From positions 9,056-25,039 of the forward strand of contig DKFG01000025.1 in assembly GCA_002452325.1 (NCBI GenBank): a stretch of 15,984 bases of DNA, in the 5' to 3' direction. This stretch comes from Geobacter sp. UBA6802. GTDB taxonomy: Bacteria; Desulfobacterota; Desulfuromonadia; Geobacterales; Pseudopelobacteraceae. Shown piece after piece: positions 1,220-15,789 of the stretch. Below the pieces are notes generated by a model. That model was not told where the DNA came from and did no database searches. It saw only the letters and a list, made by a program, of their open reading frames with translations. A program made the position numbers and the translations under genes. Positions within the stretch are counted from its first letter, which is position 1. Each line of letters begins with the position of its first letter.

Positions 1220-1561
1220 GTGGCCCGGATAACCCCACACATAGCCGCGCATGGTCTTGATCAAGGCTTGATTGACGAGATTGTAAACCGACTTCAGAAA
1301 ATAGCGCCGATGCAGATTTTTCTGTTTGGCAGTCAGGCAACCGGATCTGCCCATGCAGACAGCGACATAGACCTGCTGCTTATCAAGAAAGAAGTCTCAT
1401 CAGCCATAAAAGAGTCAATTGAAGCCAGAAAACTGTTGCGTGGTCTGGGACACTCCTTTGACCTGATTGTGACTACACCGGAAGAGTTTGAATTTTATCG
1501 TACCCAGGTGAACTCGGTGCATCATGCGGTGGCCAACTATGGGAGGCGGCTGTATGGGTAA
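1220..1561 (+). CDS. Minimal nucleotidyltransferase (MNT, Pol-beta superfamily), putative antitoxin of a HEPN/MNT pair
   Basis: The motif LFGSQATGSAHADSDIDLLL (nt 1328-1372) fits the GS...D.D nucleotidyltransferase signature. The protein is 113 aa. A GTG start at 1220 has AGAGG about 6 nt upstream. The 3' end overlaps the next ORF. Confidence 0.85.
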   Translation: MARITPHIAAHGLDQGLIDEIVNRLQKIAPMQIFLFGSQATGSAHADSDIDLLLIKKEVSSAIKESIEARKLLRGLGHSFDLIVTTPEEFEFYRTQVNSVHHAVANYGRRLYG

Positions 1562-1952
1562 TGGGCCGTTTCTTGATCAGCAGGCGATATTTGTCCTGAA
1601 GGCACGCCAGGACTTTTCGCTAGTCCATGAGGTTATGGGCAACAACAAGGTGGCGCCGGAAATCATGCTGTTTCATATTCAACAGGGCGTAGAAAAACTG
1701 ATAAAAGCCCTGTTCTGTATCCACGCTGTACGCTTCCCCAAAACCCATGATCTTGATGAACTTGTTGAGCTGGCCCTGGAGCACAACATACCTCTTCCAC
1801 CGTTTATGGAAACCTTGACGGAGCTTTCACCCTATGCCGTTGAATGGCGTTACGCCATCCTGCATGATGACCTGCACGACATAGCCGCCATGCTGGAGCA
1901 GGCTGAAAAGTTTTTGCAGTTTGTAGAGTCTTTCCTGAATTCACAAAAATAG
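1554..1952 (+). CDS. HEPN-domain protein, putative toxin partner of the MNT
   Basis: An R-x4-H motif is present in EWRYAILHD (Arg codon 1848-1850, His codon 1863-1865). I prefer the ATG at 1554 over the track start at 1524. It has GGAGG (1541-1545) about 8 nt upstream and overlaps the MNT stop by 8 nt (ATGGGTAA), the usual toxin-antitoxin coupling. About 132 aa and all-helical in appearance. Confidence 0.8.
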   Translation: MGNGPFLDQQAIFVLKARQDFSLVHEVMGNNKVAPEIMLFHIQQGVEKLIKALFCIHAVRFPKTHDLDELVELALEHNIPLPPFMETLTELSPYAVEWRYAILHDDLHDIAAMLEQAEKFLQFVESFLNSQK

Positions 1953-2023: not shown

Positions 2024-2034
2024 TGTCCGTCTAA
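2024..2034 (+). promoter_or_regulatory. Copy (a) of the recurrent motif TGTCCGTCTAA; candidate alternative-sigma -10 element or operator
   Basis: An exact 11-mer with 43 nt between it and the ATG at 2078, on the same strand as the gene. See the motif finding. Confidence 0.5.
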
Positions 2035-2077
2035 CCTTTCTGAGTAAGCACCATTCAGACAAGGGAGCAACCAGGCC

Positions 2078-3925
2078 ATGCACCACCACAGCTACGCACA
2101 CGACTACCGCCTGCAGACCAACCGCTACACACGCCACGAAGAGGTAACCAGAGAGGTAACCGCTGGCATGGGTCAGCAGCCAACCGGCACCACTCTTCTG
2201 CCTAGCGGCAATGGTTGGCAGCAAGCATTGATTCTGCCCACGGTTACCCAACGCGATGACGGTATTCTGCTGGACAGCAGCGTCTCCAGCCGGATGCTTT
2301 GGCTGCAGTTGGACTCCGGCAGGATATGGGGGCTCTCGTACCGCAGCCGGTCATCGCTGCTGAGTTTCCGTGAGCTGAAAAAGATCGCGCAACGACTGGA
2401 AGCCGCACAGCAGCGCGAGATTGAGACGCTGCCGGGTCACCTGGCCAAGCTGTTCGGCTGGTTTACCTGTGGCTACAGTACATGGGAAGACCTTGACGAG
2501 ATCGCCGAGGATCTGGTGCGGGAAAAGCTGCGGGCCAGCCAACAATGGGATCAGGGCTACCTACTGACGGATGAATCGCTGCGCAAGGCTGCCGCACCGT
2601 TCAGGCAACGGTTTGTTGACGGGCTGGCATCCTTTAATGCAGCACTGGATCAGGAACTGTTGCACATGATCGGCGCTGACGACCATCAGACCATGGTGGA
2701 CACCACCCGCTACAACTACCTGCTGCATCCGATCGACAAGATCAGCACCTACCGCCGCCAGGCAGTGCAGACCTTCCCCCTGCTGGGCGACCTCTTCACC
2801 GGCGCCAGCACAGAGCACGCTGTGCAGCGTCTGCACAACTGGATCGATGCCGGCAACCCGCTGCTGACTGCCGTGGCCGATTACTGCCGCTGCGTCAAGA
2901 CCATCCCCCGTTTGCTGGCCGGCAAGGAATATGCTGAAATCGGCGCTGAATGGCAGGGCCAACTGCCGCTGTTAACCGACCTGCTGGGGATGCTGCCGCC
3001 GGATTACTGGCCCAAAAGCGCTGAAGAATGGCAACTGTTCAACCAGTGGCTGAGGCCGGTCTTCTATGCCCTGGGTGACACGCGACAGCGCAGCTACAGA
3101 CAGCAACTGCCCGGCTGGCTGCAGGAGCTTGCCAAGGAAGGCTACAATCGGATAGCAGACCGGCTTGAGCGGCATGGCGTGTCACTGGTGGATATCACGA
3201 CCCTGCCCGACTTTGAGCGCTCGCTGGGTGAATGGGCTAACCAGATTGATGCCGATCCTGACCAAGCCCTTGAGGCGCTGCACCAGTACTCCATCCTGCG
3301 TCTGGCGCAGCTTTCGCGACGCTGGCACGACTGGCAGGTGCGCCGCGTGGGCGAGGCCGAGCCAGACCTGTTTGCTGACATGGACGGGGATACCAGCGAC
3401 CATCGCCACTCCTGCTGGCTGAGCCTGATCGACAAACCCTGGCCCCATGGCCGTCACCAGGTGGTGCCGCTGACCACGCCGCTGATGCTGCAGAATGAAG
3501 GCGGCCGCATGGGCCATTGCGTGGGCAGCTACGCCAGTGTCTGCCTCTACTTTGGCTCCCACATTTTTTCGATCCGTGATACAACAAGCAACAAATCGCT
3601 CTCGACCGTTGAAATGAAACTTGCCGATGAAGGGTTCTTTGCCGGCAAGGTGCATGTGGTGCAGCATCGCGGGCCAGCCAATGCCGACCCCACGCCGGAA
3701 TGCCAACAGACCCTCAAGGCCTTTTTGTGGCACCTGCGCTGGGCACTCAAGCAGGAACGGATCAATGACCTGCAGCGTCAACTGCAGCAGCGCTGCGAGG
3801 AATCGGCCGCTTTTCTGCAAACAACCAAAATCAGGTGGTGGTCGGAGCAACAGATTGCCCAGTTCCGGGAACTGCTGCAGGGGTATGCAGGGCTGCTTGA
3901 TGCTGTGCACGAAAAATCAGGATAA
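2078..3925 (+). CDS. Large protein of unknown function with a PcfJ-like C-terminal domain
   Basis: A 615-aa ORF with GGGAG 10 nt upstream. An alternative start is the ATG at 2168. Near the C-terminus, LQNEGGRMGHCVGSYASVCLYFGSHIFSIRD...VVQHRGPANADP resembles the EG..M.HCV..Y...G...I.S.R core of PcfJ-like proteins as I remember it. The N-terminal ~470 aa is unassigned. Confidence 0.6.
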   Translation: MHHHSYAHDYRLQTNRYTRHEEVTREVTAGMGQQPTGTTLLPSGNGWQQALILPTVTQRDDGILLDSSVSSRMLWLQLDSGRIWGLSYRSRSSLLSFRELKKIAQRLEAAQQREIETLPGHLAKLFGWFTCGYSTWEDLDEIAEDLVREKLRASQQWDQGYLLTDESLRKAAAPFRQRFVDGLASFNAALDQELLHMIGADDHQTMVDTTRYNYLLHPIDKISTYRRQAVQTFPLLGDLFTGASTEHAVQRLHNWIDAGNPLLTAVADYCRCVKTIPRLLAGKEYAEIGAEWQGQLPLLTDLLGMLPPDYWPKSAEEWQLFNQWLRPVFYALGDTRQRSYRQQLPGWLQELAKEGYNRIADRLERHGVSLVDITTLPDFERSLGEWANQIDADPDQALEALHQYSILRLAQLSRRWHDWQVRRVGEAEPDLFADMDGDTSDHRHSCWLSLIDKPWPHGRHQVVPLTTPLMLQNEGGRMGHCVGSYASVCLYFGSHIFSIRDTTSNKSLSTVEMKLADEGFFAGKVHVVQHRGPANADPTPECQQTLKAFLWHLRWALKQERINDLQRQLQQRCEESAAFLQTTKIRWWSEQQIAQFRELLQGYAGLLDAVHEKSG

Positions 3926-3936
3926 CCGGGCAGCCA

Positions 3937-3947
3937 TGTCCGTCTAA
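3937..3947 (+). promoter_or_regulatory. Copy (b) of the recurrent motif TGTCCGTCTAA
   Basis: An exact 11-mer with 37 nt between it and the ATG at 3985. It sits exactly at the switch from GC-rich to AT-rich sequence. Confidence 0.5.
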
Positions 3948-3984
3948 GATTGTTGAATTTAGCGACATAAAATAAGGAGAAAAA

Positions 3985-4437
3985 ATGAAGATATTAGTGG
4001 CAGTTCTATCCTTGCTGGTTATTTCAATAAACAGCTTCGCATTAGATATTAAGGTAAATAGCATTACTAAAATGAAAAATAACATCAAAAAAACTGAAAT
4101 AACACAAATACCATCTACTGAAGAACGTAATGGATTATATCAAATGGTTAAAGAAGATACCCCTCAAAGTAATATGCTTCTTGAAGGCATAAAAGATGAT
4201 TTAACGCCTGAAGGTGTCAAGCTGTTTAACAAAGATAGAATAGGTTTCTTCAAATTGAATACTATCGAAATCAGAGGGTATCTTGTTGATTGCAATAGTA
4301 AACTTATTGCCCCTGCCTATTCTACAGACAAATATAATAAAACAATTATAATGTCTAAGACTTTTGAACCAAATTTCAGAAAAGCACAACCACAATTTGG
4401 AGAAGATATCGTTGTCACATTAAGTTGCAAAAGGTAA
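3985..4437 (+). CDS. Small AT-rich secreted protein of unknown function
   Basis: A strong RBS (AAGGAG, then 6 nt, then ATG). The signal peptide is MKILVAVLSLLVISINSFA|LD. The protein is 150 aa with two Cys and has no recognisable motif. Very low G+C compared with its neighbours. Confidence 0.7.
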   Translation: MKILVAVLSLLVISINSFALDIKVNSITKMKNNIKKTEITQIPSTEERNGLYQMVKEDTPQSNMLLEGIKDDLTPEGVKLFNKDRIGFFKLNTIEIRGYLVDCNSKLIAPAYSTDKYNKTIIMSKTFEPNFRKAQPQFGEDIVVTLSCKR

Positions 4438-4439
4438 GG

Positions 4440-4508
4440 ATGATATCGGTACTGTTCGGCAATACCATCCCGGCGGCGGCGGTCCGCGAAATTGAGGCGG
4501 CCAGCTAG
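4440..4508 (+). pseudogene. Possible relic of the 3' end of a GC-rich plus-strand gene (…ILFGNTIPAAAVREIEAAS*)
   Basis: A 22-codon GC-rich reading frame ends at the TAG at 4506-4508, 16 nt before hairpin 4525-4551. It lies between two AT-rich cassettes. Too short to assign. Confidence 0.3.
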
Positions 4509-4524
4509 TCAACTACACCAAACA

Positions 4525-4615
4525 CCCCGCCCGGTTCCTGCCGCGGCGGGGTGTTTCATTTTACTGCACCTGCTGCCTTGCCTTGGCCCGTTTTGCCAGC
4601 CCTTCCCGTACCGGC
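4525..4615. repeat. Direct repeat copy A: hairpin terminator 4525-4551 plus a duplicated gene 3' end
   Basis: Positions 4525-4602 match 6063-6140 with one mismatch in 78 nt (4535 t versus 6073 c, in the loop). Positions 4603-4615 still match 9 of 13. Confidence 0.95.
4561..4615 (-). pseudogene. Duplicated last 16 codons plus stop (VREGLAKRAKARQQVQ*) of the lipoprotein gene at 6099-7112
   Basis: The C-terminal peptide is identical to that of the 6099-7112 ORF. Upstream of it the frame runs into antisense AT-rich DNA, so the track ORF 4561-4758 is not a real gene. Confidence 0.75.
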
Positions 4616-4702
4616 GCTAAAATCGATTGTAAACACCTGATATTTAGAATAAATTGCTCATTACATTTTAGCTGTATAACATTTACATGGGAGGGAAATC
4701 TA

Positions 4703-6028
4703 ATGTTGGTGAGACGAATTACAGTTTCGTTGTTTTTAACCTGCTGCACATTGATCATGTGGACAAGTATGGTTAATGCAGAAACAGCAAAGCATAGAAG
4801 AAATTCGGAAACTGTTTCATCAAGTTACAATTCGGATATGGCAGTAGGAACAATAACCGACGGACTTGTTGCTTACTTTCCTTTTGAAAATGATGCACAA
4901 GACGTCAGCGGAAATTTTAATCATGGCCTCATTAATGGCAACGTAAAATTCGTAATTAGCGCCATAGGTAAAGGAGCTAAATTTAATGGCATAAATAGCC
5001 AAGGAGGGAATCAAAATCCGGACTACATACGCGTACCAAGTTCTGAAACTTTAAAATTTCACAACTCACTGACGGTATCATACTGGATTCACATTGACGG
5101 GAATCAAGTTCAAACTGCTGCAAACTGCTCTGGGGCAGTAGTATACGGTATTGGTGGTACAATTTTGGGAAAAAGCGGTGATCGCAACGGGTTTGTTTTT
5201 GGAGAATCAGAAAATGACAGTTCATTCATGATAAACCCCTACCAACGCGGAGTTGGCTTATCAAGCAAAAGTGGAGAATTGCCTAGTGCTTATAAAGCAT
5301 TTCGACATATAGCTTACACAATTGATGGCAATACTATAAGTCAATATGTCAACGGTGTTTTGGTTAACAAAGGTAATGGATCAGTTGATTTTTCATCTTC
5401 AAATTCGCGCGATATGTATATCGGCACCAGCTACAATCGCGGTGGAGCATGCTTGGACTACTGGTTCCAATTTGATGGAATAATTGATGAAGTTCGTATT
5501 TACAACCGAGCACTTTCACAATCAGAAATCCAACAAAATTTAAACACTGACAAGCTAAAAATGAAAAAACAGTATCGAAGCAATTACAAAAACATTAAAA
5601 CATTAGATGATCATGATATTTTTATAAAAACTTATACAGGTAAAGATCCTGGCAAATTAATACCAAAAGTAAAAAAAATGAAAGCGTCTGCAGAGTTGAG
5701 AGCAAAGCGGGAACAGGCTGAGGCTGCACGCAGAGAGCAAGATACTTCACGAAATTCATATTCAAGACCAGGAGGTTATACCTCAACTGGATCAACTTAT
5801 CCAACCTGTGGGTCGAATGATACATGCTTCGAAATAATTGAACAAAGCTGGACAGAAAAAAATTATTCAAAATACAGAATTCGTTGCACCAAAGGGCCTT
5901 ACACTGGCAGCGAAAAATGTCTTAGCAAATGGCATGATTCTGGAAAATGGGCATCGGGATGTGCTGTTGGGGACTATCATACATATGATTCTGCGCTGAG
6001 GGCTGGCAATTACAGTTGTTCTCCATAA
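4703..6028 (+). CDS. Exported LamG / concanavalin-A-like lectin domain protein with a Cys-rich C-terminal domain
   Basis: The likely start is the ATG at 4703, with GGGAGGG at 4689-4695; the track start at 4583 lies inside the duplicated segment. The signal peptide is MLVRRITVSLFLTCCTLIMWTSMVNA|E. The LamG_3-type pattern spans about nt 4850-5535 (LVAYFPFENDAQDVSGN...GKGAKFNG...DYIRVP...LTVSYWI...FRHIAYTIDGN...YVNGVL...MYIG...FDGIIDEVRIYNRALSQSEI). It is followed by the linker EQAEAARREQDTSRNSYS (5711-5764) and a ~85-aa C-terminus with 7 Cys. Confidence 0.85.
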   Translation: MLVRRITVSLFLTCCTLIMWTSMVNAETAKHRRNSETVSSSYNSDMAVGTITDGLVAYFPFENDAQDVSGNFNHGLINGNVKFVISAIGKGAKFNGINSQGGNQNPDYIRVPSSETLKFHNSLTVSYWIHIDGNQVQTAANCSGAVVYGIGGTILGKSGDRNGFVFGESENDSSFMINPYQRGVGLSSKSGELPSAYKAFRHIAYTIDGNTISQYVNGVLVNKGNGSVDFSSSNSRDMYIGTSYNRGGACLDYWFQFDGIIDEVRIYNRALSQSEIQQNLNTDKLKMKKQYRSNYKNIKTLDDHDIFIKTYTGKDPGKLIPKVKKMKASAELRAKREQAEAARREQDTSRNSYSRPGGYTSTGSTYPTCGSNDTCFEIIEQSWTEKNYSKYRIRCTKGPYTGSEKCLSKWHDSGKWASGCAVGDYHTYDSALRAGNYSCSP

Positions 6029-6062
6029 CCACCAGTTCAAATACGTTCTGTCTGTCCCTACT

Positions 6063-6153
6063 CCCCGCCCGGCTCCTGCCGCGGCGGGGTGTTTCATTTT
6101 ACTGCACCTGCTGCCTTGCCTTGGCCCGTTTTGCCAGCCCCTCACGCACCCGC
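6063..6153. repeat. Direct repeat copy B: bidirectional hairpin terminator 6063-6089 plus the genuine 3' end of the lipoprotein gene
   Basis: See copy A. The hairpin is ccccgcccgg-ctcct-gccgcggcgggg, followed on the plus strand by tgtttcatttt. Confidence 0.95.
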
Positions 6154-7112
6154 TGCAACGATTCCGTAACAACCTCGTCCGGCTTGGTCAGCAAGCCATC
6201 GGCACGGGTAATCAGACTGAGCGCGGCCTCAAGATCGCCATTCTCCTCGGCACAGACCCCCAGGTTGTGCTGTAAAGCCGCTGACTGCACCCCGCTGCCC
6301 CCGATCTGCTGCCAGATACTGCAAGCCCGGTCAAGGCGCTTGGCCTTGGCAAATTCCAGTGCATTCTCGAATGCCTGTTGATGGGAGGCCGGCAGCCCTT
6401 CGGTGGATTCCAGCAGGCGCACCTGGCTGGTGCGGTAGTACGGGGCAATATCCTTGCGCAGCCGCTCAATCACCTGCTGTTGTGCCTGGCGCAGCAGTTC
6501 TTCCGGTGTCGGCAACGGGCTGCTATCATCCCGGCAGCCGCTCTCCTCGCGTTGCTCCCGATACAGTTCCGAGAATACAACCCTGCCGCTCTGCACCTCA
6601 ATCAGGCGGGGGGTAACATCCAGCAGTGCGGTGCGACGAATGCAGGGGACCTTTGTGGTGGTCCAAGCCGTGCACTTGCCTTTGGCGTTCGTTGTACTGC
6701 ACACCCGCCGCTCCGTCAGGTAACGGCTATCGGTGACGCTGCGGGCTGTGATCTGGCCGGTGTAGATACCCCGCGCCCCGGTCAGCATCCCCACCTGCAC
6801 CACGTCTTCGGGGTGAAAATCGCCGGAGATGGACAGCTTCAGTTCGCTGAACACCTTATCCAGGTCGCTACGGCTGACCACCTGAAAGTACTGTTTACCA
6901 TCCAGCCTGATACCGGCCAGCATGGCCTCAATCTCAGCTGCGAGGGTCGCGCCGCCTGACCCGTTGAACGGCAACACCGCCACGGTCTTCAACCGGGCAG
7001 CCTCGATGGAACTACCCGGCTCCAGGGTGGTAATGGCTACCCTAGGAGCAGCGCAGGCGGCCAAAAGGCCACAGCAGATGAAAACCAGGCATAATCGCAG
7101 CAGATGGCTCAT
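6099..7112 (-). CDS. Lipoprotein with a CsgG/LpoB-like N-terminal domain and a TPR-like helical C-terminus
   Basis: The Met at 7112 is preceded by AAGGAG (7126-7121) with an 8-nt spacer. It opens the lipoprotein signal MSHLLRLCLVFICCGLLAAC (lipobox LLAAC). The track start at 7211 would overlap the upstream gene. VAVLPFNGSGG...LAAEIEAMLAG...YFQVVSRSDLDKVFSELKLSISGDF...GARGIYTGQI resembles CsgG-family lipoproteins. The C-terminal ~100 aa (AFENALEFAKAKRLDRACSIWQQI...NLGVCAEENGDLEAAL) looks TPR-like. Confidence 0.7.
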   Translation of the reverse strand: MSHLLRLCLVFICCGLLAACAAPRVAITTLEPGSSIEAARLKTVAVLPFNGSGGATLAAEIEAMLAGIRLDGKQYFQVVSRSDLDKVFSELKLSISGDFHPEDVVQVGMLTGARGIYTGQITARSVTDSRYLTERRVCSTTNAKGKCTAWTTTKVPCIRRTALLDVTPRLIEVQSGRVVFSELYREQREESGCRDDSSPLPTPEELLRQAQQQVIERLRKDIAPYYRTSQVRLLESTEGLPASHQQAFENALEFAKAKRLDRACSIWQQIGGSGVQSAALQHNLGVCAEENGDLEAALSLITRADGLLTKPDEVVTESLQRVREGLAKRAKARQQVQ

Positions 7113-7137
7113 ACAGACGTCTCCTTGTCTTGCTGTG

Positions 7138-10100
7138 TTACCACGTACCCACCTTAACCGCCTGCAGACGCTTGCTTGGTCCCAGCGGCGCGGCATACAC
7201 CATGTTGCCATCCACCGCCGGGGTCACCATCCGGTCACCGTAGAGATGACTTTCCCACAGGGGTACTTTTTCATGTTCTTTACCAGTTGCTGGATCAAGC
7301 ATCAGTAGGTTGACCAGATTGAGGATCGAGGTCTCGCCAGGTTTTGGCTTGTTTTCAGGCTCAAGCGTATAAACGGTCAGCCAGTATTTGCCGATAACCG
7401 GCCGGGCATAGGATTCTATGCTGGTTTCCAGCTGCCAGACCAAATTGCCCAACGGCTTGAAACCGATCTTGCGCAGCAGCGCCGGACGGACCCGAAACGC
7501 CTGCAGCCCGCCTTCGGTTTGAACAATCAGGCGGCTGTTGTGCAGCAAGGGCCGCACCAGGGCGGCCGCACCCAGTGCTACCATCTGCTGTGGTTGCAGT
7601 GTAACGGCATCCAGCACATGCAGTTCCTTGTCTTTGGTGGGCACAAAAGCCAAACCTGCTGCCACCTCAGGCATACCGGCATTTTTGACGCTGAAACGAC
7701 TGAACTTGCCGGAGATCAGATCAAAGCGTTTCAGCCCCTGTTTATTCAGGTAGTAAGCTCCATCGCCAACAATCCGCAGCGCATCCTCATCCCGTATCAC
7801 TGATTCCAGTTCTCCCAGGTTCCGTTCCCAGCGCAGCGTACCGGTGCTGCGGTCAACCGCCCAGAGAGTGCCGCTGTAGTCAGCCACCAGCGCCAGATTA
7901 CGCCAGAACTGGGCGCCCCCTGCCACCTGCTTGCCGCTATAGGCAAACTGCCAGACAATGCTGCCGTCAGCTGGCCGGATACGGGTAAGGGTATGGCTGT
8001 CTGCCGTCACAAACAGGTCACCATCCACCAGCCGCGGCGAGTGCCTGATCTCGCCCCCTAACTGCCGCTTCCAGCGCAGTGTGCCGTTTGACCGGTCAAA
8101 GGCGTAGAGATGGCCGTCTTCATGCCCGATCACCACCAGGTTGCCGACGATCAGCGGGCCGGATGCAAAGCCGTAGATCGACTTGTTTTCACGTTCTGTA
8201 ATGCTGGATGCCCACAGCACCGGCGACAGCAAGGTAGTGCTGCCCCCTGCCTTTTCGATGATGCTGATCAACTCAGCCAAGCCGCCCTGCTTGGCCAGAT
8301 ACAGCGGACTGGCGCCTTTGCTGTCAGCCTTGTTGGGATCGACCTTTCTGGCAAGCAGCCAGCGCACCAACGCCAGGTTTTCCTCACGTACCGCCTGCTG
8401 CAGTGCGGTAACGCCCTTGCTGTCGGCTTGGTTAAAATCTGCCTTGTAGCGGGACAGCAGCTCTGCCATGACAACACTCTTCACCATCACCACGGCAGGC
8501 TCTGCCAGAAAATCATCTGGTATGTTGTGCTTCTGCAGCAGATGCTGTCTATACTGATTAAAGTCGTTCTCCGGCGTTGCTACGCCGTTTGGTGTTGCCC
8601 GGTGTTCCAACAGGATACGGGCATTGGCAAGCCGGTCTTTTGCTACAGCCTCAAGCAGGGCAAAGGAGAGCAGTTCCGGATTGAGCTGCCTGCTAAACTG
8701 CTGCAGAGCCCGCGTCAGGCGCCCGGCACCTTTTTCTTCCTCTGCCAATGCCCTGAACAGTGTGCGTAGCATCACTGCAGAGAATGTCTGCCCCTTAAAG
8801 GCCAGTGCTGCATCAAGGTGTCCATTAGACAGGGCCACCTCCATCGGTGTCTTGTCAAACTGGCCCTGCTGAATACGGGCGCCCTTTTGCAACAGCAGAC
8901 GGATCGCCTCCAGATTACCTTTTTCAGCTGCCTGATGCAGGGCGGTATTGCCGCTCTTGTCCTTGAGATCCAGCGGGCTGCCGGCATCGATCAACAGCTT
9001 CATCACAGCTGCCGCTCCCTTTTCGCGCCGGGCAGCATCCATCAGCGGTGAAGTGCCGTAGTTGTCCTGATACTGCAACAGAGTTGTTGACAACGGCTTG
9101 CCATCTCTGCTCCGTTTGCGCATCTCCTGCAACAGGAACGAGACCACCTCCGGGCTAGCCTTCATGGCAGCCACATGCAGGCAGCTGCCACCGGTAACAC
9201 CATGCAGGCTGCTTGAGTCTTTGAGCAACTTGCCGGTAATGCCCAGGTCTGCGCCATGGGCCAAAAACAGCTTAAGGATATCCGGCTTCCGGGTGCCGCA
9301 GGCATCAAGGGTTGCCTCAGGATCAGGCTTGACACCCCGTTTGAAAAGCTCCTGCACCAGGGCTGGCGATTCGGTCCAGAACACCGCCATCTGCAGCGGC
9401 GTTGCGCCGCTGTCACTGCGCAAGTTCGGGTCAGCACCACGCCTGAGCAGTTCGATGGCCAGCTCCGGCTGTCTGGTCCAGGCTGCCAGGCTGACCAAGG
9501 GACGTTTGAAAAATCCACGGGCATTGCTATCAGCCCCTTTATCCAACAGATAGCGCACCACTGCCGGCTGTTTGTGTTCAACCGCATTAGCGACTGCCCG
9601 GTCTCCCTCTTTACCCCGTACCGGTGCGCCAGCCTGCACCAGTTCCTTTACCACGGCCAGATGGCCCTTTTGGGCGGCAACACTCAGGGCGGTTTCAACT
9701 TCGGAACTCCAGTGCGAGAGTTTTACCTTACGGTCCAGCAGCAGCTTCACCACTTCAGGATGACCGTTTTCAGATGCCTTGATCAGCGGGTTTTCGCTGT
9801 AGCTGTCCAGAGCCTCCGGATTTAGCCCCAGTGCAATCAGACGTCTTGCCATACCGGTTTGGCCCTTGACTGCGGCAATGTGCAAAAGGGTCTGTTGCTT
9901 GTCGGTCACGATTTTGGGATTTGCTCCGGCAACCAGCAAACGCTCAAAGACCTTGTCATGGCCACCAACCACAGCCCAGGCAAGTGCGCTCATGCCATCA
10001 TTGCGCTGATCCGTGGCCTTAGCTCCCTTTTGCAGCAGCAGTTCAATTGCCGGAAGACCGCCATCCACCGCAAACATCAGTGCATTACTACCGCGCGGGT

Positions 10101-10299
10101 TACGCTTGTGCAGATCAACTCCACTGCCCAACAGCGCCTTCATCCGGGCCAGATCACCTTTTTTTGCAGCCAGCATCAACGGTGTATTGCCGTCCTTATC
10201 CGGCGTATCAACAGCACCGGTTGCAGCGTATAGCGACTGCGCAGCTATGAAGAACAGTTGGACAAGCAGGCAGAGGACAGGAATCAGGCGCAGAAACAT
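7138..10299 (-). CDS. Exported ankyrin-repeat (about 15 or more repeats) + PQQ-like beta-propeller protein
   Basis: GGAG lies 7 nt upstream of the ATG. The signal peptide is MFLRLIPVLCLLVQLFFIAAQSLYA|A. ANK units of the form G.TPLM.AA..G....V..LL..GA recur through about aa 35-680 (roughly nt 8260-10200). The C-terminal ~350 aa carries PQQ/BamB-type repeats (GHLYAFDRSNGTLRWKRQL, TLTRIRPADGSIVWQF, GTLWAVDRSTGTLRWERNL). It is 25 nt upstream of the lipoprotein gene, so the two probably form an operon. Confidence 0.9.
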   Translation of the reverse strand: MFLRLIPVLCLLVQLFFIAAQSLYAATGAVDTPDKDGNTPLMLAAKKGDLARMKALLGSGVDLHKRNPRGSNALMFAVDGGLPAIELLLQKGAKATDQRNDGMSALAWAVVGGHDKVFERLLVAGANPKIVTDKQQTLLHIAAVKGQTGMARRLIALGLNPEALDSYSENPLIKASENGHPEVVKLLLDRKVKLSHWSSEVETALSVAAQKGHLAVVKELVQAGAPVRGKEGDRAVANAVEHKQPAVVRYLLDKGADSNARGFFKRPLVSLAAWTRQPELAIELLRRGADPNLRSDSGATPLQMAVFWTESPALVQELFKRGVKPDPEATLDACGTRKPDILKLFLAHGADLGITGKLLKDSSSLHGVTGGSCLHVAAMKASPEVVSFLLQEMRKRSRDGKPLSTTLLQYQDNYGTSPLMDAARREKGAAAVMKLLIDAGSPLDLKDKSGNTALHQAAEKGNLEAIRLLLQKGARIQQGQFDKTPMEVALSNGHLDAALAFKGQTFSAVMLRTLFRALAEEEKGAGRLTRALQQFSRQLNPELLSFALLEAVAKDRLANARILLEHRATPNGVATPENDFNQYRQHLLQKHNIPDDFLAEPAVVMVKSVVMAELLSRYKADFNQADSKGVTALQQAVREENLALVRWLLARKVDPNKADSKGASPLYLAKQGGLAELISIIEKAGGSTTLLSPVLWASSITERENKSIYGFASGPLIVGNLVVIGHEDGHLYAFDRSNGTLRWKRQLGGEIRHSPRLVDGDLFVTADSHTLTRIRPADGSIVWQFAYSGKQVAGGAQFWRNLALVADYSGTLWAVDRSTGTLRWERNLGELESVIRDEDALRIVGDGAYYLNKQGLKRFDLISGKFSRFSVKNAGMPEVAAGLAFVPTKDKELHVLDAVTLQPQQMVALGAAALVRPLLHNSRLIVQTEGGLQAFRVRPALLRKIGFKPLGNLVWQLETSIESYARPVIGKYWLTVYTLEPENKPKPGETSILNLVNLLMLDPATGKEHEKVPLWESHLYGDRMVTPAVDGNMVYAAPLGPSKRLQAVKVGTW

Positions 10300-10332
10300 T
10301 GGAATACTCCATGGTGGCGATTGTTACTGTTG

Positions 10333-10342
10333 TAGACGGACA
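10333..10342 (-). promoter_or_regulatory. Copy (d) of the recurrent motif (TGTCCGTCTAc on the minus strand)
   Basis: The reverse complement of 10332-10342 reads TGTCCGTCTAC. It has 33 nt between it and the minus-strand ATG at 10299 and is oriented with that gene. Confidence 0.5.
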
Positions 10343-10391
10343 AAACGGATGTTGCAACCACAGAAACCTTCTTTATGCGAATGAAACAAAC

Positions 10392-10420
10392 TTGTCCCAA
10401 CCCAAATTCATCTGTATACT
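10392..10420 (+). promoter_or_regulatory. Candidate sigma-70-type promoter for the sigma-factor gene
   Basis: TTGTCC (10392-10397), a 17-nt spacer, then TATACT (10415-10420) preceded by TG. This would give a very short leader of about 8 nt before the ATG at 10436, with no visible Shine-Dalgarno. Pattern only. Confidence 0.35.
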
Positions 10421-10435
10421 CTGCCGCAATTTGCC

Positions 10436-11323
10436 ATGCTCAAACTATTCAAACAACAACAAATCCCCGTAAAACCACCCGCTGGAGGCTTTGATAGTGC
10501 CACCTGCAAACGGCTATTGACCGAGCAGTTGGACTATATCACCAAGGTCTGCGAGAAGGCTGTTGGTCAGGCTGAAACCGCCCACAGCCAGTGCATTGCC
10601 GGTGAAGGGGGCCATGGCTATCTGGTGGAACGGGCCGGACGGCTGGACAAAGATGAGCTGTTCGTGCAGGTGCTGGATCATCTGCAGGAAGACGACTACC
10701 GACGGCTGAGGGAGTTCAAGGGCAACTCATCCATCACCACCTACCTGACCGCCATCATCAGCCGTCTGGTGGTGGATATCGTCCGCAGCCGCACTGGCCG
10801 TAACCGGGCCAAAGAGCGGGCCGAACGGTTTGGTGAGCTAGGCCGCCGCACCTATGAACTGGTTGTGCAAGCCAGGCATACGATTAACGAGGCTGTTGAG
10901 ATCTTGCAGGTCAACTATGGCATAACTGCCGATGCAGGCCAGTTGCAGCCCATACTTGATGAGATGCAGGGCCGCAGCAGTCGCCACCAGACCGATACCG
11001 ACCATGAGACCGCCTGGAGTGACAACGGTGAACTGGTCAGCATCCAACGCGGGACACCTGAGCAGAAAACCTCAGACAAACAGCTTGAACGCAAACGTAA
11101 CGAGGTGCTCAGGCAGGTGCTGGACAGCATGACGGCAGAGGACAAGCTGCTGATCAGGCTGCGCTTTCCTCTGGATGAGACAGCCGATCCGCTGGATAGC
11201 GCCACCGTGGCCAGAATGCTGGGCCTCAACCAACAGGAGGTGGAGCGCCGCACCCGGCGCATCCTGACAAACTGCCGGGAACTGCTGCTGAAACAGGGAA
11301 TTTCACTGGATGCATTATTATGA
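10436..11323 (+). CDS. Sigma-70 family RNA polymerase sigma factor, ECF-like but unusually long (295 aa)
   Basis: Region-2-like sequence: DDYRRLREFKGNSSITTYLTAIISRLVVDIVRSR (about nt 10690-10800). Region-4 HTH-like sequence: LLIRLRFPLDE...SATVARMLGLNQQEVERRTRRILTNCRELL (about nt 11150-11300). About 100 aa lie between them and about 75 aa precede region 2. An anti-sigma gene follows. Confidence 0.8.
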   Translation: MLKLFKQQQIPVKPPAGGFDSATCKRLLTEQLDYITKVCEKAVGQAETAHSQCIAGEGGHGYLVERAGRLDKDELFVQVLDHLQEDDYRRLREFKGNSSITTYLTAIISRLVVDIVRSRTGRNRAKERAERFGELGRRTYELVVQARHTINEAVEILQVNYGITADAGQLQPILDEMQGRSSRHQTDTDHETAWSDNGELVSIQRGTPEQKTSDKQLERKRNEVLRQVLDSMTAEDKLLIRLRFPLDETADPLDSATVARMLGLNQQEVERRTRRILTNCRELLLKQGISLDALL

Positions 11324-11331
11324 AACAGAAC

Positions 11332-11342
11332 TGTCCGTCTAA
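11332..11342 (+). promoter_or_regulatory. Copy (c) of the recurrent motif TGTCCGTCTAA, in the sigma / anti-sigma spacer
   Basis: An exact 11-mer with 22 nt between it and the ATG at 11365. It shares the 13-mer cTGTCCGTCTAAc with copy (a). Confidence 0.5.
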
Positions 11343-11364
11343 CTATGATGAACGGAATTGAGCC

Positions 11365-12021
11365 ATGAACCAGGCTACTGAAAAATACAACCGCGACCAG
11401 CAGATCGGGCGCAGTATTGCCGCTGCCATCCAGCAGCAGCAAACCGCCCCTACCTGCCTGAGCGATGAGCAGTTGGCAAGCCTGCTGGACAACCGCCTGG
11501 CAAGTGGCGAGCGGGAGCGTTGCCTTGTTCATATTGCGGCCTGTGATAGCTGTCTGGCACGTTACACCATGACCGCTTCTCTGTTGCAAACTGCACCGCA
11601 GAGAGAACAGGCATCACGTACCAGCGGCTTTCTCTATGGTGGTCTTGTTGTTGCCGCAGTGGCATTGCTGGCTATTGGATTGGTTGTGCAGCAGCAACCT
11701 AGTAAAACCGTTGAGCAGGTGCAAACTGCAGGTCATGCCGCCATTGGCGGCATAAACACCCCCAGCGCAGAAATAGTTCGCCTGCACCAGCGCCTGAAAA
11801 TCTGGTCCAATGAGACCATCAATGCGATTGAGGCAAAGCAGTATGAGCTGATTGATAAAAGCCTGCCCGCCACCCTGCAACAGGAAGCCCTCAGTCTTGG
11901 GGATGCTACTTTGGCTGATAAGCTGGAACCGCTGGTAAAACATCTGGCAGAGCCGAAGGATACGGATGAATGGTGCGAGGAGCTTAATATGATCATCAAA
12001 CTTAATTCAAGGTGCCAATAA
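11365..12021 (+). CDS. Zinc-finger (ZAS-type, HxxxCxxC) single-pass anti-sigma factor
   Basis: The motif HIAACDSC (H56, C60, C63) is at nt 11530-11553. One transmembrane segment, GFLYGGLVVAAVALLAIGLVV, spans about aa 87-108. It is followed by a ~110-aa helical extracytoplasmic tail. The gene lies directly downstream of the sigma gene. Confidence 0.8.
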   Translation: MNQATEKYNRDQQIGRSIAAAIQQQQTAPTCLSDEQLASLLDNRLASGERERCLVHIAACDSCLARYTMTASLLQTAPQREQASRTSGFLYGGLVVAAVALLAIGLVVQQQPSKTVEQVQTAGHAAIGGINTPSAEIVRLHQRLKIWSNETINAIEAKQYELIDKSLPATLQQEALSLGDATLADKLEPLVKHLAEPKDTDEWCEELNMIIKLNSRCQ

Positions 12022-15000
12022 ATGATGTCTGATAAACACGCACATTTAGACTCGAATACATCGAGGTGGGCTATAATCGCACCCGCCGCCATAATGCGAA
12101 TGGATGCATCAGTCCAGAAGCTTTTGAGATTCAACAAGGCACTTAACATTTTATTCGCAATTATCCGGCAGGATCAGGTTGGAGGTATTATACCGAAGCA
12201 ATCACTCGTTTTTTTTCTGTCATTTTTTTTTATAACAGTTTTATCCGGTTGTGCCATCAGACCTGTCAATAGCTGGCAAGCAGGGTTCAGTACTATCCAG
12301 GAAAACAACAGTTCGGCAAGCAGCGGTCAATTAGTCGTACAGGTGCCCCACGCCAGCAATATAGCTTCAGTTGCCATAAGCCCGAACGGCAGATATTACG
12401 CTTCGACTAGTATTGATAATCAGATCAATATCTGGTCCGCCGATGCCGTTATCGTCAAATCCTATAAAGACAGAGACAATCTGGAGGATGGAATTTACTA
12501 TAAGCTAGTTTTTTCGTCTAATTCAAGATATTTAACCTGTGTATCGCCATACAGAATTACGATATTCGATCTTGAAACCGGCAGTATTCGCCGCATGAAT
12601 TTATTCAACAGCAAAAAAAATGACAATGGAAACTTCTATTCCGGTTTTGTCGAGCTGTCCCCAGACGGCAATCTGGGTATTGCGCTGGTTTCGGAAAAGA
12701 CCATGAATTCTAAGCTGGTGTTGTTCAGAGTCGATAAAGATGAAGTTACCGATCTGCTTGAATTCAAACGGAAGGTTCAGCGTTTCGGCACCTTCAGTCA
12801 AGATGGTAAATACATCGTCATGCCAAGTGGTTATGATTATACAAAGGGATATATCTATACCATTTCCACGGGGGAGATGAAAAGCATTGGTATAGACGAT
12901 GACATGTGGATTCAGCATGCGGATATATATGGCAATAATGTTATCTTTACCAGTAAACAGGAAAACGTATACGTTTATTCTCTTGATGGTAAGTTACAGA
13001 AAAAGATTCAACTACAAGATTATTTTCACAGCATTGAAGCCATTCACCTGATAAAAAACACCTTGGTAGTCGGGCTGGAAGGGAATGTTGAGTTTGTGGA
13101 TATTGAAGCCGGTCGTACGGTAGGCAGCATTAACGGTTTTTTGGCTGATGTGGATAAATATTCAGGCACGATATTGGTGTCACATGACAGTAAAATGAAA
13201 CGTGGTACCTTGAGTAACGGCCAGAATTACGAATACCAGCTGGGCAGGATCAACATCGACTCGTTAACCGAAGAAGCTAGCTTGAGCGATGATGTAATTT
13301 ATTCGAAAATAATCAGCAACATGATCTTTGCCACTAAAGCGGACAAGAGCCTCCATGTATGGGATATCAATGGCAAATTCATCAACAGCATTACTGGGGT
13401 AAATTACATCGAATATCGTAACAACCAAAACTGGACACCTTTCGGCTACATCACCGGCAACAATGCTGTGCTGGCCGGAACTAAAGAAACATTGAGTCTC
13501 ATAGATACAAAATCTTCAGCTGTGCTGGAATCATTCAACTTACCACAGGTTTCCTCTGTTGATGCGAGCGCCGATTTCAAACTGGTTGTCGGTGGTTACT
13601 CGGACGGTTATGTGGGGGTTTGGGCCACGGACGGGAAATTACTGCAGCGTTTCAAGGCCCATATTGGCAATATCAGCCATGTATCAATCGAGCCTAACAG
13701 TAGCAGAATTCTGACTGTGGGGGATGGTGTCTTCAAGTTATGGTCAGTTGGCGGCAGACTGCTTACTAATGGCAATTGTAACGATTATAAGGCTACAGCC
13801 GGAAAATTTACTGGCAAAGGGAGTCACTACATTATTGCCTGTGGCAAAAAAGATGTTTTCAGCGGTAGTTATGAGTCACTACGCTTCAGGCATCACGACT
13901 CTAAACTCTACTTGTACGATAATGTAGATTCGGTCGGAAAGGAAATGAATGCTGTTTTCCCGAGAATAGAAGATCGTGGACTGGTGACGAATATCTATGT
14001 TGATGACCGAAATGGCAACATAATCACTACCCACGACACTACCCATTACAGCAGGCATTATACGAACGAGAAGTGGGAGGATTTTACAAATTTCGAGAAT
14101 TATATTATCTGGACAGCTGAAGGCAAATTTTTGAAATTTGCCAATAAAAGGGATAGGATTTTTGACAAAACACTATTGCCGGCTGAAGTGCTGATGAATG
14201 TCAATGGCCCATTCAAGAATATTATTGAGATTGCAAAAGACTACGAGAGTATCAGCAAAGCGGGTGATTTCGATACAATCAAACAGGTGCGTATATCAAA
14301 GGATCGAAAATATCTGGTGGCAGGGCTGACAGATGGCACCATAAGAATTATCAATACAAAAAATCAGAATATGATTTTCCTGCTGTCCAGAGGGAATAAA
14401 TGGGTTATGTACTCGGCTGACGGCATCTATGACTCGTCTATAGATGGCGGTGATTTGTTAAAAATCAGAAAGGGAGCAGCAGTATTTTCCATTGACCAGT
14501 TCGCCGTTGCCAAAAACAGACCTGATATTCTCCTGCAAAGAATGGAATTGGGGACGACCGAACAGATTCAGCATTACAGGAGACTGGCACAGGCTAGAGC
14601 GAGCAAGTTTGTCGCCGGAGGGCAGGGGTATACCAGTATTCCGGCCTCCTCGATTGTGCAGGCTAGGCAGCGCGGCAAAAAAGCACAGCTGGAGCTAAAT
14701 TTTAAAGGATACAACTCACCGCTCAAAGCCTACAACATCTTTATTAATGATGTCCCGCTGTATGGCTCTCAGGGTAAGGATATCAGCGGCTTTGAGGCGC
14801 AGATCAGTGTAGAGGTTGAGCTGACATCTGGCAAAAACAAAATCGAGGTATCGTGCGTCAACGGCTTTGGGGTTGAGTCATACCGCTCGTTGCAGTACCT
14901 GAACTATGACAAGCCGGTTAAGGGTGATCTATATTATGTCGGCCTAGGCGTATCAAAATACAAGGAGACCGCGATCAACCAATTGCTCTATGCCCACAAG

Positions 15001-15789
15001 GATGCTATCGATCTAGGGAATATCTTCAAGGCTGCGGACCGGACGGAGTTCGCCAATGTCTATGCCGTAACCTATACCGATGAGCAGGTAACAAGAGAGA
15101 CCATCAAAGAGCTGAAGAGCTTGCTCAAGAACGCTAGGGTTGACGACACCTTTGTCCTCTTCATCGCCGGTCATGGTGTGCATGATACCGATGAAGCATC
15201 CATCTACTATTACATCACCTACGACACCAGGCTGGACGATCTGAAGTCCACGGCGGCATCATTTGAACTTATCGAAGACACCTTGCAGCAGATTGCGCCA
15301 CGGAAAAAGCTGTTTTTAATGGATACCTGTGAGTCCGGGGAGCTCGATACCGTTGAAAACAACGCTCTGTTTGCATCTGCCGACAGACAGAAAATCAGAG
15401 CCCGTTCCTTGAAGGTAAAGAAAAAAAAATATGCGAGTACAAGCTTTACCAGTCATAGTCGCAAGTACCTGCTGGATAAGGACCGTTATATATATAATAA
15501 TGTTGCCAGAAGGTCGGGTGCCATAGTCTTTTCCAGTTCACGGGGCGGGGAATTTTCCTACGAGCCGATCTACTTTAATAAGAATGAAAACGGTTATTTC
15601 ACAAAAGAATTAATTGCGGCACTACAGAGTGGAACTAGCAACATAAAACAAAAATCCCTGTCTATTCGTTATATTAAGGAAATCGTAACCAGGAAGGTAT
15701 CGGAACGGACGAAAGGACTACAGAATCCAACCATTGATAGGGATAATCTCTACCAGTCCGTTACTCTGCCTACAGTCGGTAAAAAATAA
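12022..15789 (+). CDS. Membrane/lipid-anchored WD40-like beta-propeller + caspase-fold (peptidase C14, orthocaspase-like) protein
   Basis: The ATG at 12022 abuts the anti-sigma stop (TAAATG), with AAGGTG 7 nt upstream. A hydrophobic segment with a lipobox, LVFFLSFFFITVLSGC (Cys77), follows an unusually long 60-aa N-terminal region; starts at Met25 or Met27 are possible. WD40-like units include ASVAISPNGRYYASTSIDNQINIWS, GYSDGYVGVWATDGKLL..FKAHIGNISHVSIEP and LVAGLTDGTIRIIN. The C14 domain runs from about D969 (nt 14926) and has the dyad FIAGH(1051)G at nt 15172-15174 and MDTC(1103)ESG at nt 15328-15330. Confidence 0.9.
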   Translation: MMSDKHAHLDSNTSRWAIIAPAAIMRMDASVQKLLRFNKALNILFAIIRQDQVGGIIPKQSLVFFLSFFFITVLSGCAIRPVNSWQAGFSTIQENNSSASSGQLVVQVPHASNIASVAISPNGRYYASTSIDNQINIWSADAVIVKSYKDRDNLEDGIYYKLVFSSNSRYLTCVSPYRITIFDLETGSIRRMNLFNSKKNDNGNFYSGFVELSPDGNLGIALVSEKTMNSKLVLFRVDKDEVTDLLEFKRKVQRFGTFSQDGKYIVMPSGYDYTKGYIYTISTGEMKSIGIDDDMWIQHADIYGNNVIFTSKQENVYVYSLDGKLQKKIQLQDYFHSIEAIHLIKNTLVVGLEGNVEFVDIEAGRTVGSINGFLADVDKYSGTILVSHDSKMKRGTLSNGQNYEYQLGRINIDSLTEEASLSDDVIYSKIISNMIFATKADKSLHVWDINGKFINSITGVNYIEYRNNQNWTPFGYITGNNAVLAGTKETLSLIDTKSSAVLESFNLPQVSSVDASADFKLVVGGYSDGYVGVWATDGKLLQRFKAHIGNISHVSIEPNSSRILTVGDGVFKLWSVGGRLLTNGNCNDYKATAGKFTGKGSHYIIACGKKDVFSGSYESLRFRHHDSKLYLYDNVDSVGKEMNAVFPRIEDRGLVTNIYVDDRNGNIITTHDTTHYSRHYTNEKWEDFTNFENYIIWTAEGKFLKFANKRDRIFDKTLLPAEVLMNVNGPFKNIIEIAKDYESISKAGDFDTIKQVRISKDRKYLVAGLTDGTIRIINTKNQNMIFLLSRGNKWVMYSADGIYDSSIDGGDLLKIRKGAAVFSIDQFAVAKNRPDILLQRMELGTTEQIQHYRRLAQARASKFVAGGQGYTSIPASSIVQARQRGKKAQLELNFKGYNSPLKAYNIFINDVPLYGSQGKDISGFEAQISVEVELTSGKNKIEVSCVNGFGVESYRSLQYLNYDKPVKGDLYYVGLGVSKYKETAINQLLYAHKDAIDLGNIFKAADRTEFANVYAVTYTDEQVTRETIKELKSLLKNARVDDTFVLFIAGHGVHDTDEASIYYYITYDTRLDDLKSTAASFELIEDTLQQIAPRKKLFLMDTCESGELDTVENNALFASADRQKIRARSLKVKKKKYASTSFTSHSRKYLLDKDRYIYNNVARRSGAIVFSSSRGGEFSYEPIYFNKNENGYFTKELIAALQSGTSNIKQKSLSIRYIKEIVTRKVSERTKGLQNPTIDRDNLYQSVTLPTVGKK

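Follow-up and report, generated by a model that had tools for sequence, protein, structure and literature searches.

In most groups of extracytoplasmic function (ECF) sigma factors, autoregulation proceeds from a promoter upstream of the sigma factor's own operon, and rseA of Escherichia coli is fed by an internal sigma-E-dependent promoter that gives negative feedback. E. coli sigma-E reads promoters of the form GGAACTT / GTC, in which T−10 and C−9 are flipped into pockets of the sigma2 domain (PMC6648896), and the ECF promoters of Myxococcus xanthus share AAc / cGT (PMC6061681). The M. xanthus pair DdvS/DdvA drives four promoters in its own neighbourhood through the shared motif GTAA-N16-CGT (PMC6061681), and DdvA is a zinc-associated anti-sigma (ZAS) transmembrane protein with a fused periplasmic TPR-CHAT part that has been proposed to start regulated proteolysis (PMC11506125). 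The locus described here lies in a 15,984-nt stretch of Geobacter sp. UBA6802 contig DKFG01000025.1 (hereafter the window, meaning the whole stretch), which contains four exact copies of the 10-mer TGTCCGTCTA together with the genes for an atypical sigma-70-family protein (10436-11323) and an adjoining anti-sigma. Judged from sequence comparison, the longer form TGTCCGTC(T/A)AA is probably (at roughly 80%) the −10-region block of promoters read by RNA polymerase carrying this sigma protein. On the best reading the word would mark a local regulon of four units, with negative feedback through the anti-sigma.

The copies in the window, each with the 11-nt block first and the exactly matching 10-mer in brackets, were as follows.

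2024..2034 (2024-2033), plus strand: motif copy 1, TGTCCGTCTAA, proposed −10 block for the PcfJ-like gene; predicted transcription start ~2040-2042.
3937..3947 (3937-3946), plus strand: motif copy 2, 12 nt past the stop of the PcfJ-like gene and 37 nt ahead of a 150-aa open reading frame (ORF); predicted start ~3952-3955.
10332..10342 (10342-10333), minus strand: motif copy 3, TGTCCGTCTAC, 32 nt ahead of the ankyrin-PQQ (ANK-PQQ) gene; predicted start ~10326.
11332..11342 (11332-11341), plus strand: motif copy 4, in the 41-nt spacer between the sigma and anti-sigma genes (11324-11364); predicted start ~11347-11348.

Start positions were predicted from the geometry of sigma-E (PMC6648896). An initial annotation, made from the letters alone, had reported a four-copy word upstream of start codons, and recounting reproduced the copies, their positions and the eleventh base, which is A at the three plus-strand copies and C at the minus-strand copy. 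The distances to the start codon, given there as 22-43 nt, were measured from the 11-mer as 43 nt (ATG 2078), 37 nt (3985), 32 nt (10299) and 22 nt (11365); the 41-nt spacer, the intergenic position of all four copies and their orientation with the downstream gene were likewise as stated. A GGAG ribosome-binding site is present between copy 3 and the start of the ANK-PQQ gene. That such an arrangement is very unlikely by chance was borne out by an expectation of 0.02 copies, and none of 200 dinucleotide-preserving shuffles reached four copies or indeed exceeded one. The exact count of four, with no one-mismatch copy anywhere in the window, also agrees with the earlier remark that no more full copies were found by eye; two-mismatch copies were at chance level (12 against 8.4 expected). 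Alignment of the flanks (±100 nt) of the four copies revealed no similarity outside a core of 10-13 nt, and a repeat finder lengthened the copies by a few bases only. The element is therefore a short word and not a piece of a dispersed repeat; the traits of repetitive extragenic palindromic (REP) or miniature inverted-repeat transposable element (MITE)-like sequences were absent, the copies sharing 10-13 nt only, all being co-oriented with a gene and none having a significant fold. Partial second copies, ACATCCGT, were observed just upstream of sites 1 and 3 (2007-2014, and 10345-10352 on the minus strand), and in a related locus, L016, a partial second copy CGTCCGTC occupies 8834-8841, 12 nt ahead of the motif site.

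The window sigma protein has only 63 detectable relatives in a large protein collection. The closest named relatives are from Trichlorobacter lovleyi (83% and 79%), with others from Geobacteraceae, Citrifermentans and an Acidobacteriota metagenome-assembled genome. Loci (denoted by L numbers) were gathered from species-representative genomes, metagenomes and exact-protein look-ups, yielding a family set of 56 full-length loci, the window included, that spans several lineages and sigma identities down to ~26%. The controls were 72 loci matching only part of sigma2, which belong to other families and come mostly from Planctomycetes. Family loci (582 kb) contained the sequence TGTCCGTCWA 51 times and control loci (847 kb) 6 times, where ~2.2 and ~3.2 occurrences respectively were expected by chance. 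A co-oriented ORF of at least 60 aa started no more than 145 nt downstream of 46 of the 49 evaluable sites, and 40 of the 49 lay outside any open frame of at least 150 codons; of random positions in the same loci, 19% lay outside such frames and 10% had both properties. Across sites the distance from motif to start codon ranged from about 3 to 145 nt.

Copy 4 occupies the site that is conserved family-wide. A G[T/G]CCG[T/A/C]C core was found 0-225 nt past the sigma stop, ahead of the anti-sigma gene, in 54-55 of the 56 family loci, and the exact 10-mer stands right after the sigma stop in L005, L011 and L016, whose sigma proteins are 53%, 31% and 29% identical to that of the window. In L006 an insertion of ~190 nt separates the sigma stop from the motif, which nevertheless remains 14 nt from the anti-sigma ATG, indicating that the word goes with the gene downstream and is no part of the sigma gene’s 3’ end. 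Loci whose sigma proteins are 61-86% identical to that of the window have differing neighbour genes, each transcription unit again being opened by the word. These neighbours are as follows.

L048: peptidase C10, a 2010-aa Lcl_C protein, Sel1 repeats and rhomboid.
L049: an FtsH-like AAA-M41 protease, and FHA, PP2C and kinase genes.
L134: trypsin-PDZ and CHASE2.
L136: ADP-ribosylglycohydrolase.
L137: an S41-PDZ peptidase.

On the evidence of these loci the word follows the sigma protein, not the cargo, and of the proteins encoded locally, all loci have only the sigma and anti-sigma in common. Where window genes recur, the orthologous site is kept for copy 1 before the PcfJ-like gene in L049 (3089) and L136 (1693), and for copy 3 before the ANK-PQQ gene in L049 (9276, minus strand). 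A GTCCGAC / GGCCGAC variant of the core is restricted to one monophyletic sigma clade, a match that is consistent with co-evolution of word and protein; at the 85% level, no column of the sigma alignment told the GTCCGAC clade from the GTCCGTC clade. The earlier inference that the word is the −10 element or operator of a regulon of the local sigma factor is supported by this linkage over 56 loci and by the orientation and placement of the sites.

Three further arrangements were observed among the related loci. Two divergent back-to-back motif pairs, 39-40 nt apart with a central A6/T6 tract, are present in L049 (1767-1825 and 9267-9326) and are candidate compact bidirectional promoters. In L014 the motif variants GTCCGTCATA and GTCCGTCCAA, at 10926 and 13202, each follow a sigma C-terminal coding end (…DVGK*), a sign that two paralogous sigma genes may lie in tandem, their words differing slightly. 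A conserved GGGAAATATCGAG-GTCCGTCAGA arrangement lies antisense to the anti-sigma gene, ~550 nt in, at L056 3787, L059 2460, L063 2642 and L091 1047 (all minus strand); it is either a promoter-like site in antisense orientation or coincidental, owing to conservation of the coding sequence.

By analogy, CGTC(T/A)AA, the 3’ half of the word, agrees with the GTC-type −10 elements that ECF sigma factors read. The (C)GT(C) core of ECF (group 4) −10 elements is present as CGTC in all four window copies and as CG[T/A]C in 54-55 of the 56 post-sigma sites, the reference motifs being those in PMC6648896 and PMC6061681. In distant clades (45 sites) a G.GGAAAaa box is situated 11-13 nt upstream of GTCCG, yielding GGAA-N14-16-CGTC, and the same box accompanies sites that do not adjoin the sigma gene; as a sequence pattern this is the two-block promoter layout of ECF type. 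At no fewer than eight independent sites (in L009, L010, L011, L015, L054, L066 and L071) the ATG is only 7-8 nt past the 10-mer, with no Shine-Dalgarno sequence between and no alternative in-frame start before the conserved N-terminal domain of the anti-sigma. Such a gap is compatible with transcription starting ~6-9 nt downstream of a −10 and would suit a −10 that feeds a leaderless or near-leaderless mRNA; leaderless ECF targets starting with A have been described (PMC7776599). A full-text literature search for the word returned unrelated primer sequences only, and the main text of the ECF re-classification paper has no Geobacter, caspase or WD40 entry.

Several observations weigh against the assignment of the word as a −10 block read by this sigma protein. 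No conserved −35 box was found at the four window sites, at 13 sites of the window clade or at nine sites of the next clade, and the window clade lacks the AAC- or GGAA-type −35 at a fixed spacing of 14-18 bp that is characteristic of ECF promoters; the initial annotation had named this weakness, which is real for the window clade, although distant relatives carry the GGAAA box. Those relatives space GGAA and CGTC at a distance near the lower limit for ECF promoters. The L049 orthologue of site 2 is degenerate (TGGCTGTCTAA), making this the least conserved and least secure of the four sites. The link between the variant word and its clade amounts to a single evolutionary switch. Finally, the sigma protein is atypical for ECF, and its middle domain alone gave no significant structural match in the PDB. 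As regards the region upstream of the word, motif-anchored alignment of 13, then ~22, sites produced only an irregular A/T tract 15-21 nt upstream, which was considered as the −35 of the window clade and rejected as irregular and partly composed of the tails of upstream terminators. As regards site 2, a 171-aa gene has been inserted within the leader of the 150-aa gene in L049 (4990-5040 and 5540-5565, corresponding to 3926-3984 in the window).

Four other explanations of the word were weighed. The first holds that it serves as operator to some other DNA-binding regulator, a repressor or activator whose gene may lie in the locus or elsewhere, the PcfJ-like protein being a local example. In favour of this, a usual −10 is shorter and less invariant than the 11-nt block, the block lacks a fixed −35 partner in the window clade, and the back-to-back pairs of L049, 39-40 nt apart, could be read as a composite site. 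An operator is nevertheless disfavoured because the word lacks symmetry and always runs in the direction of the gene downstream, which would be unusual for a dimeric regulator, and because no local protein other than the sigma and anti-sigma is shared, the PcfJ-like gene being present in few loci. Nor would a global regulator be expected to track one small sigma family or to change its variant with the clade, and the two-block layout seen in relatives is that of a promoter. An operator is accordingly improbable.

A second explanation places the word in the mRNA, as an element of the 5’ untranslated region bound by a protein or small RNA and controlling translation or stability. The distance to the start codon, about 3-145 nt, is too variable to sit easily with this view, even though every copy precedes a start codon on the sense strand, as an mRNA element equally would, and in some loci the word stands 7-8 nt from the ATG, the position of a translational operator. 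The four window sites share no fold (z −1.25 to +0.70 against shuffled controls) and there was no Rfam match at the gathering threshold. The divergent pairs of L049 would leave hardly any room for two promoters upstream, and the GGAAA box upstream of the word in relatives is a feature of DNA promoters. An RNA element is for these reasons very improbable.

The block might instead be the −35, or another promoter part, with the true −10 placed 16-18 nt downstream. The −35 is often the better conserved half of ECF promoters and nothing conserved lies upstream of the block in the window clade. At the eight or more sites with an ATG 7-8 nt past the block, however, such a −10 would fall inside the gene, which excludes a −35 there; no conserved block was found downstream, and it is upstream that relatives have the GGAAA box. 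The likelihood of this arrangement is lower again than that of an RNA element. That the copies are due to chance, or are functionless fragments of a dispersed repeat or mobile element, has a negligible probability. The window does hold short dispersed repeats of other kinds (a GC hairpin of 40 nt, present four times, and a direct repeat of 94 nt), but no shuffle reached four copies of the word, its flanks are without similarity, and orthologous positions keep it even where the sigma proteins are only 26-53% identical.

The features of the window other than the motif copies are listed below; signal peptides, the H-x3-C-x2-C motif and the lipobox were read off the translations.

5-1105, plus strand: WG-repeat protein (gene context).
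1220-1952, plus strand: nucleotidyltransferase / HEPN pair (gene context).
2078..3925, plus strand: PcfJ-like gene, 615 aa, proposed target unit 1 (Pfam PcfJ, E = 3.3e-9).
3985..4437, plus strand: 150-aa orphan ORF with an N-terminal signal peptide, proposed target unit 2 (translation starts MKILVAVLSLLVISINSFA).
4703-6028, plus strand: LamG-type protein (gene context).
6099..7112, minus strand: CsgG-like/TPR protein, 337 aa (Pfam CsgG 1.5e-7, TPR_12).
7138..10299, minus strand: ankyrin-repeat and PQQ/BamB-like beta-propeller protein, 1053 aa, with a signal peptide (N-terminus MFLRLIPVLCLLVQLFFIAAQSLYA), first gene of proposed target unit 3 (Pfam Ank_2 2e-76, PQQ_2 2.6e-23).
10392..10420, plus strand: sigma-70-type consensus match TTGTCC-N17-TATACT ahead of the sigma gene, a candidate housekeeping promoter from a consensus scan only.
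10436..11323, plus strand: atypical sigma-70-family protein, 295 aa (TIGR02937, Pfam and AlphaFold2 (AF2) models).
11365..12021, plus strand: single-pass transmembrane anti-sigma with HIAACDSC (H-x3-C-x2-C), first gene of proposed target unit 4.
12022..15789, plus strand: WD40-repeat and caspase (peptidase C14) protein, 1255 aa (Pfam WD40 2.3e-17, Peptidase_C14 1e-16).

The sigma protein scored 45.2 bits against TIGR02937 (cutoff 42.9). Pfam Sigma70_r4 was matched in all 17 family members searched and Sigma70_r2 in 13 of them, and a profile search of the PDB matched the sigma4 domains of SigB, SigF, RpoD and RpoS. The protein has the sigma2 and sigma4 domains of ECF (group 4) sigma factors; at 295 aa and with extra domains it departs from the canonical ECF plan, in which these two domains alone, without sigma1.1 or sigma3, are joined by a short unstructured linker in about 170-220 aa. 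The additional parts are a ~70-aa N-terminal extension with an invariant Cys and a domain of ~60 aa (residues ~124-177) between sigma2 and sigma4 that is confidently predicted to form four helices. The AF2 model of the full-length protein had a predicted local distance difference test (pLDDT) score of 70, and that of the isolated middle domain 78. The full-length model could be aligned over its whole length to three-domain sigma factors (Thermus SigA, SigB, RpoS and sigma-32) with a TM score of only ~0.2, and hhalign to the C-terminal half of E. coli sigma-70, using an approximate sequence, aligned region 4 only. The insert might stand in for a sigma3 domain and help to read TGTC, an idea to which these comparisons lent no support. 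In correction of the ECF context given in the initial annotation, the protein is no canonical ECF sigma in view of its length, N-terminal extension and insert. The family appears to be uncharacterised in the literature searched. Two cysteines, C39 of the N-terminal extension and C280 of the sigma4 domain, are invariant or nearly so across the family, and a redox or metal role for them is possible.

The anti-sigma gene adjoins the sigma gene and its product carries the H-x3-C-x2-C motif of ZAS proteins in its N-terminal domain. Its profile scores were below the curated cutoffs (zf-HC2, 16.7 against 22.2 bits; RsrA, 19 against 62.5), and a weak zf-HC2 match is on record for the relative in L137. 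In 36 of 55 loci the gene that directly follows the sigma gene encodes a homologue of this N-terminal domain. The sigma and anti-sigma genes have no detected terminator between them, which makes basal co-transcription likely. In the window the word lies downstream of the sigma gene, and upstream of it only on the opposite strand. The initial annotation had accordingly described the sigma gene as being without the motif and preceded instead by TTGTCC-N17-TATACT, which is indeed present at 10392-10420; TTGnCn…TATACT is kept in L049 and not in L048. The absence of the motif holds for the window but not for the clade. In close relatives a 186-aa gene of unknown function is found just upstream of the sigma gene (L048 6623-7227, L049 9317-9914, L136 3658-4256 and L137 2558-3118); it is missing from the window, and the motif stands ahead of it in L048, L049 and L136, making positive autoregulation possible in these three loci.

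A circuit may be proposed from this arrangement. The sigma gene would be expressed from its own housekeeping-type promoter, and the transmembrane anti-sigma, of ZAS type, would keep the sigma protein at the membrane. Once released, the sigma protein would fire the four local promoters, with CGTC(T/A)AA acting as a GTC-type −10 whose T and C would flip out into pockets of sigma2; transcription would start ~9 nt past that C of CGTC, and the invariant TGTC just upstream would lengthen the contact with the sigma protein. The promoter in the spacer would supply the anti-sigma together with the WD40-caspase lipoprotein, the former giving negative feedback and the latter an output or an activator. 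The other units fired would be the ANK-PQQ and CsgG-like genes, the PcfJ-like gene and the small secreted protein. We infer direct recognition by the sigma protein, the start sites, the signal and the feedback logic alike.

In most of the loci that were examined, the neighbours of the anti-sigma gene code for proteases of catalytically unrelated classes, namely C14 caspase (with WD40 or Lcl_C), TPR-CHAT, C10, AAA-M41, M48-TPR, trypsin-PDZ, S41-PDZ, S46 and transglutaminase-like. The loci concerned are the window (12022-15789) and L005, L007-L010, L013, L048, L049, L052, L056, L061, L072, L077, L134 and L137. By analogy this suggests an exchangeable protease partner, possibly a site-1 protease. 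Put together, the observations could describe an undescribed non-canonical sigma-70 branch (N-terminal extension, sigma2, four-helix domain and sigma4) that in the window clade reads an 11-nt extended −10 without a −35, as one of the three parts of a portable module, beside a transmembrane ZAS anti-sigma and an extracytoplasmic protease that is exchangeable (caspase, CHAT, C10, M41, M48, trypsin-PDZ, S41 or S46); this would act as the site-1 protease freeing the sigma protein, in a “split”, diversified relative of the DdvA TPR-CHAT anti-sigma. This joint reading is doubtful as a whole and is offered tentatively.

The WD40-caspase protein has a hydrophobic segment and an LSGC lipobox, and its start abuts the anti-sigma stop; WD40/caspase relatives were present in six other family loci. 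On the minus strand the start of the CsgG-like/TPR gene is 26 nt past the ANK-PQQ stop and the two are probably co-transcribed. The 150-aa ORF had no match in Pfam, NCBIfam or PADLOC, and has an 83%-identical orthologue in L049. PADLOC returned only generic ankyrin, caspase and nucleotidyltransferase matches in the window, and assignment as a defence system was rejected on this account.

The remaining observations concern genes and repeats outside the proposed regulon. The LamG-type gene is the one unit of the island without the motif. It is flanked by a 94-nt direct repeat (94% identical, 4522-4615 and 6060-6153) and resembles a duplicated junction or inserted cassette. A 40-nt GC-rich terminator-like hairpin (CCCCGCCCGG…CCGGGCGGGG, followed by a T-run) occurs in four copies after genes (1114-1153, 1963-2002, 4519-4558 and 6057-6096), the copy at 1963 ending ~20 nt before motif copy 1. 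The MntA-like nucleotidyltransferase / HEPN pair consists of overlapping genes directly upstream of the PcfJ-like gene, both in the window (1220-1952) and in L136 (880-1612). The pair lacks the motif and probably forms a module of toxin-antitoxin type in its own right. The WG-repeat gene contains, within positions 1-723 of the window, about six tandem DNA repeats of 102-105 nt that are 61-97% identical.

If the −10 assignment is correct, the analysis provides a regulon map and promoter coordinates for an uncharacterised sigma / anti-sigma family that ranges over Geobacteraceae, other Desulfuromonadota / Desulfobacterota and Acidobacteriota-type lineages, and it would tie caspase-WD40, ankyrin-propeller and PcfJ-like genes of unknown role to one envelope-linked switch. 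Prediction of ECF promoters restricted to the DNA upstream of the sigma gene would miss families in which the conserved promoter lies between the sigma and anti-sigma genes. The recurrence of unrelated protease classes beside the anti-sigma suggests proteolytic activation of the kind proposed for DdvA.

The type of circuit is familiar, while no description of the protein family was found in the literature searched. E. coli sigma-E (RpoE, ECF02) likewise uses a GTC-based −10 followed by A-rich bases, and relatives of the window family share its GGAA-type −35; as with rseA, a promoter dependent on the sigma protein would feed the anti-sigma gene and give negative feedback. The family differs from sigma-E in its invariant 11-nt block (TGTC and CGTCWAA), which in the window clade is without a −35 box, in the family-wide promoter in the sigma / anti-sigma spacer and in the 295-aa sigma protein with extra domains. 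The block also recalls the extended −10 (TGn) promoters of group 1-3 sigma factors, being contiguous upstream from the −10 and seemingly making a −35 dispensable in the window clade; its TG is two bases further from the hexamer-equivalent, and the likeness is one of resemblance only. Among ZAS anti-sigmas, RsrA of sigma-R has the same H-x3-C-x2-C in its N-terminal sigma-binding domain, in line with the weak RsrA / zf-HC2 match, whereas the window protein is membrane-anchored with a predicted extracytoplasmic part of ~100 aa.

A coupling of caspase-family proteases to sigma factors is known from the type III-E CRISPR (clustered regularly interspaced short palindromic repeats) “craspase”, in which, as PMC10028731 is summarised in PMC11506125, the TPR-CHAT protein Csx29 cleaves Csx30, which is linked to an ECF sigma factor. 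To the extent of that summary, both systems genetically couple a caspase-family protease to an anti-sigma-like protein and an ECF-type sigma; craspase is cytoplasmic and RNA-guided, whereas here there are no CRISPR genes and the protease and the C-terminal domain of the anti-sigma are predicted to be extracytoplasmic. The nearest parallel is with DdvS/DdvA, which shares with the window a set of four local motif-bearing promoters (putative in the window), an anti-sigma with a zinc-type cytoplasmic domain and one transmembrane helix, and a caspase-family module. The CHAT module is fused to the anti-sigma in DdvA, whereas here the WD40-caspase is a separate gene, replaced by other protease classes in other loci, and the promoter of the autoregulated ddvS-ddvA operon is upstream of the sigma gene, not between sigma and anti-sigma. 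The cargo of the window contains no CBASS (cyclic oligonucleotide-based antiphage signalling system) or CRISPR genes, its PADLOC matches being generic, and the sigma families differ. By this analogy the window module looks like a split, diversified counterpart of DdvS/DdvA, which is put forward as a lead.

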